From Candidatus Saccharimonadota bacterium (GTDB lineage: Bacteria > Patescibacteriota > Saccharimonadia > Saccharimonadales > Saccharimonadaceae): DNA of 64,000 bases. The notes beneath the pieces were generated by a model. It made no database searches. It was given only the letters and a program-made list of their open reading frames with translations, and was not told where the DNA came from. This document shows, one piece after another, positions 12,230 through 57,427 of this stretch. Each line of letters starts with the position of its first letter. The stretch's first letter is position 1. The position numbers and the translations under genes are program-made. Location of the stretch: the NCBI GenBank assembly GCA_030531645.1, contig JAUNNB010000002.1:8988-72987 (forward strand), in the 5' to 3' direction.

Positions 12230-12632
12230 TTTAGCATTTTTAACCACATTTAGCGAGTACTCTTTAAGGCATTTTAAGAGGAATTTTGAAAAAGATTACC
12301 CTAAAAAGGTATGGAGAGAGACAGAAAAATCTATCCTCTATGAAATCTCAGAAATATCGAAGAATAATTTAGGATTTACTCAAAAAGTTGATGAACTTTG
12401 GCAAAAAGACAACTTTTGGATCTTTAAATATGATTTTCGTATTGTGGGTATGAAGAAATCTACTAGGTCGGCTGGCAATAGGTGTATTGTTTTTCTAGAT
12501 AATCTAAAGAAACAGGCAGAAATACTTCTGATTTATAGAAAGACGGATTTACCTAAAAATAAATCGGAGCAAGCATATATTGAAGCTGTTGTTAGAAACG
12601 AATTTCCTAGTTATTACAGCGCAACTAGATAA
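12198..12632 (+). CDS. Putative RelE/ParE-fold toxin
   Basis: Overlaps the antitoxin 3' end; KYDFRIVGMKKSTRSAGNRCIVF...EILLIYRKTD resembles the RelE-like K.R...GKSGG.R.IY...LL.IY.K pattern. Confidence 0.65.
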   Translation: MFSHQLISTDNLAFLTTFSEYSLRHFKRNFEKDYPKKVWRETEKSILYEISEISKNNLGFTQKVDELWQKDNFWIFKYDFRIVGMKKSTRSAGNRCIVFLDNLKKQAEILLIYRKTDLPKNKSEQAYIEAVVRNEFPSYYSATR

Positions 12633-12634
12633 GG

Positions 12635-12705
12635 CGAAACTGGCTCTATCCCAGGATCTCTGGGCAGGCATCCAGAACGGACGCTTTTCGAGCCAGCCTC
12701 TTTCA
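12635..12705 (-). ncRNA. Candidate small three-way-junction RNA convergent on the toxin gene
   Basis: Stems CTGGCTC/GAGCCAG, GCGTCC/GGATGC and CCCAG/CTGGG; TATAAT at 12712-12717 on the minus strand. Confidence 0.4.
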
Positions 12706-56318: not shown

Positions 56319-56771
56319 ATGTCAACAATTGACCAACAGTTTGTAGAATATATCGTAAAAACACTTGTAAATAATCCGGATAAGGTAAACATTGATCGCA
56401 ATATTGATGAAAAAGGCGTGCTTCTCGCTCTTTCCGTCGACCCAGAAGATGTCGGTCGCGTGATTGGTAAGCGTGGTGCTACTGCCCAGTCTATCCGCAC
56501 TTTGCTTCGTGCTCTTGGCACTAAGAATGATGCTCGTTACAACCTCAAGATTGTGAACTCTGATGGTGAGCGCATCTCTGGTGAGCGCCCAGAACATATT
56601 GAAACTGCTCCTGCTGATTATGAGCATACAGAGCCAACTGCAGTTCGTACTGCTGAAGACATCGATGCTGACGAAGATGCTACTGATGAAGGTGAGGAAG
56701 AAGCTGAGACTTCTGAACTCGCTGAGAAGACTCGTGCTGAGCTCGCAGATCTTGATGATTTAGATATTTAA
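56319..56771 (+). CDS. khpA: KH-domain RNA-binding protein (KhpA/UPF0109)
   Basis: DVGRVIGKRGATAQSIRTLL motif; acidic tail. Confidence 0.9.
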   Translation: MSTIDQQFVEYIVKTLVNNPDKVNIDRNIDEKGVLLALSVDPEDVGRVIGKRGATAQSIRTLLRALGTKNDARYNLKIVNSDGERISGERPEHIETAPADYEHTEPTAVRTAEDIDADEDATDEGEEEAETSELAEKTRAELADLDDLDI

Positions 56772-56776
56772 CAATT

Positions 56777-56896
56777 AAAATAAGCCGAAATGCTATCACG
56801 GGGCCGTTCCTTCGAGCCCATCGTTATGGGTCTCAGTCACTGTTATTTCGCCCGTCGCGAAATGACTCCCCTTAGATAGTATTTCAGGCTTATTTT
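56777..56896 (+). ncRNA. Candidate 120-nt multibranch structured RNA 3' of khpA
   Basis: About 21-bp basal stem (56777-97/56875-96), GGGG/CCCC helix and two internal hairpins. Confidence 0.5.
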
Positions 56897-57427
56897 TTAT
56901 TCAAAGTCGTGGTTGACCTTTTCTATCTTGGTCATCACCCAGTCGTAATCTTCTTGTTTGAAGGTGGTACGGCAGAATTTGCAGAGGCCAGAGTTATTAG
57001 TTTCTAAGCTTTGACCGCACGTAGGGCATTTGGTGATAATGCCACGCTTCTTTGCGTCCTTACTCTTAGTAAATTCCAAGGAATATGTATCTACGGCACG
57101 ATAGTTGTCCTGACCTGATATAATTTTGTGTTCGTTTAGATCTAGGATATAGTCTAGATAGCGTGCTACAAGGGTGACTTTGGCCACATAATTCTCGCCG
57201 ACTTCATCAATACCATCTAAATGGCAGGATTTTACATTGAGCTCATCATACATTTGCCTTTGGTTCTTTTGTTTTAAATCCTCGACATTATTCACGAACT
57301 TGCTGTAAACTTCATCTGACATGAAGTGCTCTACTTCGCTCATCTTATCTAGCATTACTGCCGTATAAGTTTTTACGAAGATATTGCTGATGTTTGCGAT
57401 AAATGCAGTTTCGTCAAAGTTTTCCAT
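56897..57427 (-). CDS. TIM44-like domain protein with C-terminal zinc ribbon
   Basis: FDETAF..., EHFMSDEVY, CPTCG..CKFC and DWVMTKI motifs. Confidence 0.75.
   Translation of the reverse strand: MENFDETAFIANISNIFVKTYTAVMLDKMSEVEHFMSDEVYSKFVNNVEDLKQKNQRQMYDELNVKSCHLDGIDEVGENYVAKVTLVARYLDYILDLNEHKIISGQDNYRAVDTYSLEFTKSKDAKKRGIITKCPTCGQSLETNNSGLCKFCRTTFKQEDYDWVMTKIEKVNHDFE

Follow-up and report, generated by a model that had tools for sequence, protein, structure and literature searches.

A 120-nt fold beside a khpA-like gene is probably one of the intergenic copies of a palindromic insertion element confined to the genus Candidatus Nanosyncoccus

What fills the gap between a khpA-like gene and its convergent neighbour in this Saccharibacteria genome, and does it have any bearing on the gene beside it? 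The structure lies at 56777-56896 of the window, by which we mean the whole 64,000-nt stretch of DNA that was analysed, and the genome is 771 kb in size and 99% complete. A preliminary description had offered three readings of the locus: a novel non-coding RNA, an autoregulatory 3' element of khpA, or a miniature inverted-repeat element inserted in a terminator. We consider it very likely that the 120-nt structure belongs to a family of non-coding palindromic insertion elements specific to the genus Candidatus Nanosyncoccus (Saccharibacteria), and is one of its intergenic copies; the family is probably kept as a palindrome at the level of DNA, and the copy at this site is likely to serve as a terminator.

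The predicted RNA fold of 56777-56896 is stable in both directions, at -51.8 kcal/mol for the plus strand (z -8.5, equalled by 0 of 200 shuffles) and -49.0 kcal/mol for the minus strand (z -6.3), and the helices of the preliminary description were all found where it had placed them. The element has the shape of a three-way junction atop a long stem, with a single G.T pair and a single bulged A in the basal stem (56777-56797 / 56875-56896). It takes up the whole of a 125-nt gap with convergent genes on either side, the 5' arm starting 5 nt past the stop codon of the khpA-like ORF and the 3' arm ending on the base that precedes the stop codon of a minus-strand 176-aa ORF. The features of the locus are as follows, those of the element itself being given without a strand.

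56319-56771, plus strand: upstream convergent gene, a KH-domain (khpA-like) 150-aa ORF; khpA-like is the name used in the preliminary description
56777-56797: 5' arm of the basal stem, copy-specific and A/T-rich, partner 56875-56896
56798-56799: 5' half of the internal loop that separates the arm from P1, reading AC in this copy and TC in most family members
56800-56803: 5' strand of P1, GGGG, closing the three-way junction, partner 56868-56871
56806-56840: P3 arm, an interrupted helix with two symmetric TC/TC loops, a bulged G and a CGTT loop
56817-56830: hairpin CCCAT/ATGGG at the tip of the P3 arm, listed in the preliminary description
56842-56866: P2 hairpin GTTATTTCGC/GCGAAATGAC, 10 bp, with a T.G/G.T mismatch near the base and loop CCGTC
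56868-56871: 3' strand of P1, CCCC, from the four-copy comparison
56872-56874: 3' side of the internal loop, TTA, from the four-copy comparison
56875-56896: 3' arm of the basal stem, reaching the stop of the minus-strand gene, with a plus-strand T-run next to it
56897-57427, minus strand: downstream convergent gene, a 176-aa ORF with its stop codon directly against the element

The khpA-like ORF has features of its own. Its C-terminal tail of about 70 residues (56550-56771, plus strand) is strongly acidic, and the corresponding ORFs of relatives are 124-147 aa long as against 150 aa here. The usual length of KhpA is about half of that.

One alternative is that the locus is a self-cleaving ribozyme, a riboswitch or another catalogued RNA family. 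The three-way-junction architecture and the conserved loops would suit this, and by eye the minus strand has a CUGA...GAA resemblance to a hammerhead core; the core spacing of a hammerhead (CUGAnGA, stem II, GAAA) is absent, however, and that candidate was rejected. Against Rfam 15 the element reached no family at gathering score, and a search with E values up to 10 returned two chance-level snoRNA matches (E 2.9 and 5.8) confined to its 3' edge. The preliminary description had made its case depend on the lack of a match to a known family, and no credible one emerged. Moreover, copies of the element lie within ORFs in both orientations, which is a misfit with a cis-regulatory RNA, and we regard this alternative as almost certainly wrong. 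Elsewhere in the window, at 12632-12700 on the minus strand, a DUF3800-IX RNA motif matches Rfam at gathering score (47.1 bits).

The preliminary description had advised looking for further copies in the genome, and a search with the central 80 nt of the element brought the number in the window's genome to four, with cores 78-100% identical. Of the three further copies of the core, which are 78-90% identical to it, one separates tsf from frr, another an S41 peptidase gene from the pyruvate kinase gene, and the third ppa from a 98-aa ORF. A BLAST-level search in relatives gave only short chance matches, and a covariance model was therefore needed. Built from the four own-genome copies, the model found 8 matches in the window's genome and about 918 in the genus, where 124 of 151 genomes carry 1-25 each and 27 have none, and it found none in the rest of the order (147 genomes from 119 other genera, two of them in the same family). 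In an exact-pattern scan of named genomes the hosts proved to be gut MAGs of goat, sheep, cattle and buffalo, labelled either Candidatus Nanosyncoccus or 'Candidatus Saccharibacteria bacterium'; the same type of scan gave no match in viral contigs. Homogenisation of cores within a genome was considered and rejected, with copies at different sites of the same genome being 0.66 identical versus 0.72 for copies at the same site in different genomes. One intergenic copy in the window's genome (positions 1484-1612 of locus L003, on contig C7) ends 17 nt before the start of a 98-aa ORF, in a divergent promoter region, and a transcript of this ORF from an upstream promoter would have the element as its leader.

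This distribution bears directly on whether the locus could be a stand-alone small RNA gene, or a 3'-UTR element of khpA bound by KhpA/B. KhpA/B proteins bind structured RNAs, and a stable fold beside khpA is what this explanation would lead one to expect. However, the khpA loci of the 11 closest relatives (~70-83% identity) have no copy near the gene, and the gene downstream of khpA is not conserved among relatives. The same core occurs after tsf, after the S41 peptidase gene and beside ppa, other copies lie inside dozens of unrelated genes elsewhere, and no promoter of its own is evident; the explanation is therefore very improbable. The idea of a khpA autoregulatory 3' element finds no support, given the absence of the element after khpA in 11 of 11 relatives, and that of a novel ncRNA gives way to a multi-copy repeat found mostly inside unrelated protein genes. 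Since none of the nearest khpA loci carries the element, the KH-domain gene is its neighbour and not its functional partner.

Across the family the element is ~115-130 bp long, with a conserved core of ~75 nt clamped by arms of 20-26 bp, and the core comprises P1, the P3 arm and the P2 hairpin in a three-way junction. The four own-genome copies can be aligned without gaps through the arms, the 2x3 internal loop, the 4-bp P1, P3 and P2. The P1 strand GGGG is invariant in all four, the main family having GGA/TCC; the P3 arm, which has a CGTT cap in the four copies, is the best-conserved part of the family; and the P2 hairpin of these copies has 10 bp, a T.G pair that never varies and a CCCGTY loop. 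The loop motifs CGTY, CCGTC and TC/TC are conserved in the family. All three 2x2 loops are TC/TC on the plus-type strand and GA/GA on the opposite one, and 82-93% of 121 copies retain this pattern; in RNA and DNA alike, tandem G.A pairs are stable. Covariation, which had been proposed as a check on the fold, was found among the four paralogous copies, with compensatory changes in 18 of 35 pairs and both hairpins affected. The alternative pairing of ACGGG with CCCGT is possible in each of the four, and the hairpin extension AGTCA/TGACT that had been described for the window copy is indeed present there but is lost in two of the four.

Most copies of the element lie inside genes. Within a census set of 147 unique copies, 128 (87%) fall in long ORFs that read through them, as do 35 of the 42 copies in a second set that comes from two fully enumerated genomes. 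Taking the orientation of the preliminary description as reference, the host mRNA carries the reverse complement in 98 copies and the same orientation in 30. At least four reading frames are used by the in-gene copies and the resulting peptides are unrelated, therefore the feature that the copies share is the nucleic acid and not a protein. Judging from the open frames, the in-gene copies are presumably kept in both mRNA and protein, and they would be translated as extra surface loops. The host genes belong to about 30 protein families, named with Pfam: aminoacyl-tRNA synthetases (ArgRS, IleRS, LeuRS, ValRS and AlaRS); tRNA-modifying and related enzymes (TsaD, TrmD, TruB, Dus, MnmA, QueA, TGT, MiaA, a U5-methyltransferase, GatB, FemAB and an IscS-like enzyme); GTPases (Obg, Der, LepA and BipA); DNA enzymes (PolA, TopA, UvrB, RecX, MgsA, RuvX and TatD); and a P-type ATPase with a few more. 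A single ArgRS ORF (locus L031) contains three copies and remains open throughout, and in ArgRS alignments three loops are occupied in some sequences and empty in others, while the enzyme of the window's genome has no copy. When TrmD is compared with the solved structure 3ky7, the insert corresponds to ~37 extra amino acids between adjacent residues. Alleles of TrmD or ArgRS with an insert would contain predicted peptides such as ...SPVTTGARERSE.... At three argS loci of other genomes (L142, L091 and L081) the same ArgRS loops hold different inserts, 30-60 aa long, that escape the covariance model and could be degenerate copies or belong to additional repeat families.

The pattern of pairing provides a possible indication of the level at which the structure is maintained. 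Over the 147 copies, 93-98% of modelled pairs are Watson-Crick, and G.U is no commoner than A.C on either strand and for any direction of the host gene, the one exception being pair 26 of P2, which is G.T in ~80% of copies. The suggestion that one G-U pair in the basal stem favours the plus strand thus has no counterpart across the family. Selection for an RNA on one strand would let G.U pairs persist, and their rarity on both strands is the pattern of a DNA palindrome, from which we infer that the pairing is maintained as such and not as an RNA of one defined strand. Pairing would in this case be kept because single-stranded DNA folds into a hairpin or cruciform, and the replication fork is the probable place for this.

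Orientation is linked to the composition of the surrounding DNA. The strand that reads the element in reference orientation is locally G-rich in 129 of the 147 copies, independently of the direction of the gene (88/98 and 27/30 in the two classes); 52 of 61 site groups and 7 of the 8 copies in the window's genome show the same. The association with GC skew is weaker in the two fully enumerated genomes (27/42, p = 0.09, in 20-kb windows), and we read the co-orientation with replication as real but imperfect. Four contigs of the window's genome (C4, C5, C7 and C8) have a GC skew of ~0.2-0.27 over 10-40 kb with little gene-strand bias, and skew of this strength could serve replicore mapping in these MAGs.

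It is conceivable that the element serves its host, either as an mRNA module that unites tRNA-handling enzymes in a regulon or as a DNA structure that is oriented with replication and to which a host protein binds, with both its spread and its persistence being selected. Evidence for this comes from a single ArgRS site with 8 orthologous copies, in which 97.7% of cells are paired, double changes outnumber single ones by 27 to 2 and the P3 arm is invariant; P3 arm and junction together have 2 variable columns in ~52, with the flanking argS coding DNA 67-78% identical. Resident copies in ArgRS are thus more conserved than the coding DNA around them, which argues that the element is not plain junk DNA. 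Furthermore, tRNA-binding enzymes account for 16 of 33 host genes versus 4 of 28 neighbours that are not hosts (Fisher p = 0.006, from small and non-independent samples); random insertion does not predict such a bias, and it counts against plain selfish insertion. The conserved loop motifs and the orientation with GC skew point in the same direction. However, in seven other ortholog sets the core is just moderately better conserved than its flanks, and strong purifying selection on the core was therefore rejected as a general rule. The two orientations relative to host mRNA are equally well paired, which argues against a single functional mRNA strand. The variable copy number, with some genomes of the genus free of matches, and the absence of the element from every sister genus searched are also difficult to reconcile with a host function, and the host bias itself is drawn from small samples. 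On balance a host-serving signal is an unlikely explanation for the element, which would instead behave as selfish DNA of the Rickettsia-palindromic-element type, with most copies in frame in housekeeping genes and a minority just past stop codons.

The arms are where individual copies differ. Among the four paralogous copies they are A/T-rich, wholly different and yet always paired. Three in-gene copies of the window's genome have cores 93.5-98.7% identical and arms 46-58% identical, each arm pair being self-complementary over 21-24 bp, and the same pattern of copy-specific, self-pairing arms recurs in a second genome (G011). We propose three explanations for this: the arms may be made anew at insertion, for instance as an inverted duplication through template switching at the fork; the cores may be overwritten by conversion that leaves old arms behind; or hairpin-templated correction may make the arms diverge much more quickly than the cores. 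On whether an arm derives from the target, the gap lengths at the three ArgRS sites gave discordant answers. Outside the arms the flanks showed no direct repeat, and a 10-nt motif (TTCC-TC-GGAA) stands at both junctions between core and arm. The proposal of a miniature inverted-repeat element in a terminator comes close to this evidence, except that the terminal inverted repeats common to all copies of a classical MITE were not found, the arms being copy-specific, and that the arms may be the element's own and not those of an earlier terminator.

The element is probably mobile. No pair of empty and filled alleles at high identity was found in the ArgRS alignments or in a search for the host gene of an own-genome copy, an ABC-ATPase, where a protein search for an empty-site allele gave no homologue above 79% identity. 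The Y1 transposase (PF01797) occurs in 7 of 151 genus genomes and was found in none of G000, G011 and G103, nor in the element-rich genomes. Reverse transcriptase (RVT_1) ORFs of ~380-400 aa are present in 97 of 151 genus genomes, often 2-4 in each; the enzyme was rejected as a partner, as it does not co-occur with the element and is absent from the window's genome and from G011. Neither a mobilising partner nor a parent insertion sequence therefore emerged from the scans for these two enzymes.

The same observations permit a different emphasis, in which the element is a maintained, strand-oriented structural signal and not passive selfish DNA. This would call either for a new mode of insertion, with an inverted duplication made afresh wherever the element lands, or for a host function as a DNA structure at the fork or as an mRNA tag of a translation regulon. 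The retention of the core in essential genes, the re-pairing of the arms, the co-orientation with replication and the concentration in tRNA enzymes lead us to retain this reading, to which we give rather low credence.

At the window locus itself the element most likely acts as a bidirectional terminator and as the 3'-end hairpin of both convergent genes. An A-run and a T-run border the stem of this copy, each strand thus reading a stem followed by a U-run, and the khpA gap has no other terminator-like site; a bidirectional role is therefore the most economical reading of the sequence. A simple terminator scan does not call the copy because the loop is too large. The intergenic copies number 26, and 24 of these can be classified, with 7 in convergent, 13 in tandem and 4 in divergent gaps. 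Gene 3' ends host 20 of the 24, usually 0-30 nt from the stop codon, and the 13 tandem-gap copies are almost always 0-30 nt past the upstream stop.

Several consequences follow for the study of these bacteria. Folds of this kind in Saccharibacteria should not be labelled as sRNAs or riboswitches in annotation. The load is considerable, at up to 25 copies per 0.7-Mb genome and up to three per ArgRS gene, and the in-gene copies amount to hundreds of natural experiments in which essential enzymes receive inserts of 30-40 residues. Known transposition mechanisms do not account for arms that differ between copies, for an orientation linked to replication or for the preference for tRNA enzymes, and these features could together reflect spread based on the replication fork.

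The element shares properties with several classes of bacterial repeat. MITEs such as Correia, ERIC, BOX, RUP and SPRITE (PMC10969869) are likewise small, multi-copy, non-autonomous and hairpin-folding; some of them supply terminators or in-frame fusions, and SPRITE and Correia resemble the present element in having intergenic copies at gene ends (PMC10969869). The Nanosyncoccus element differs in that its conserved part is the middle and not the ends, in the absence of any visible target-site duplication and in its lack of shared terminal inverted repeats, and on this last ground we reject its identity as a classical MITE. With REP/REPIN-RAYT and with IS200/IS605-derived palindrome-associated elements it has in common imperfect hairpins, conserved mismatches, a replication-related bias in strand or orientation and the logic of single-stranded DNA. 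REPs, however, are extragenic, whereas 83-87% of Nanosyncoccus copies are genic, and the few genus genomes with a Y1/RAYT transposase are not the element-rich ones; identity with REP/REPIN-RAYT therefore fails on both location and cognate transposase.

No published account of elements of this kind, whether from Saccharibacteria or from the candidate phyla radiation, came up in a full-text literature search. To our knowledge, palindromic insertions that keep the reading frame have been seen as a peculiarity that hardly occurs outside Rickettsia, and Nanosyncoccus would represent a second, independent case, in an ultra-small episymbiont of a different phylum.

By analogy, the closest known kind would be the Rickettsia palindromic element (RPE; Ogata et al. 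2000, as summarised in PMC10969869). As far as that summary extends, both are hairpin-forming repeats of ~100-150 bp with no gene of their own and no known transposase, both are confined to one lineage of reduced-genome bacteria, and both often lie in frame within unrelated housekeeping genes whose ORF stays open. The likeness is one of kind and no sequence relationship is claimed, the two coming from different phyla; common descent is unlikely because the Nanosyncoccus element is restricted to its genus. They differ furthermore in the genic fraction, which is higher in Nanosyncoccus (83-87%) than in RPEs, where the same summary places it at roughly half, and the three-way-junction core, the tandem TC/TC (GA/GA) loops, the copy-specific arms, the tendency to follow GC skew and the skew of hosts towards aminoacyl-tRNA synthetases and tRNA-modifying enzymes set the Nanosyncoccus element apart. 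The comparison with RPEs suggests that reduced genomes repeatedly tolerate, or even use, in-frame palindromic elements.
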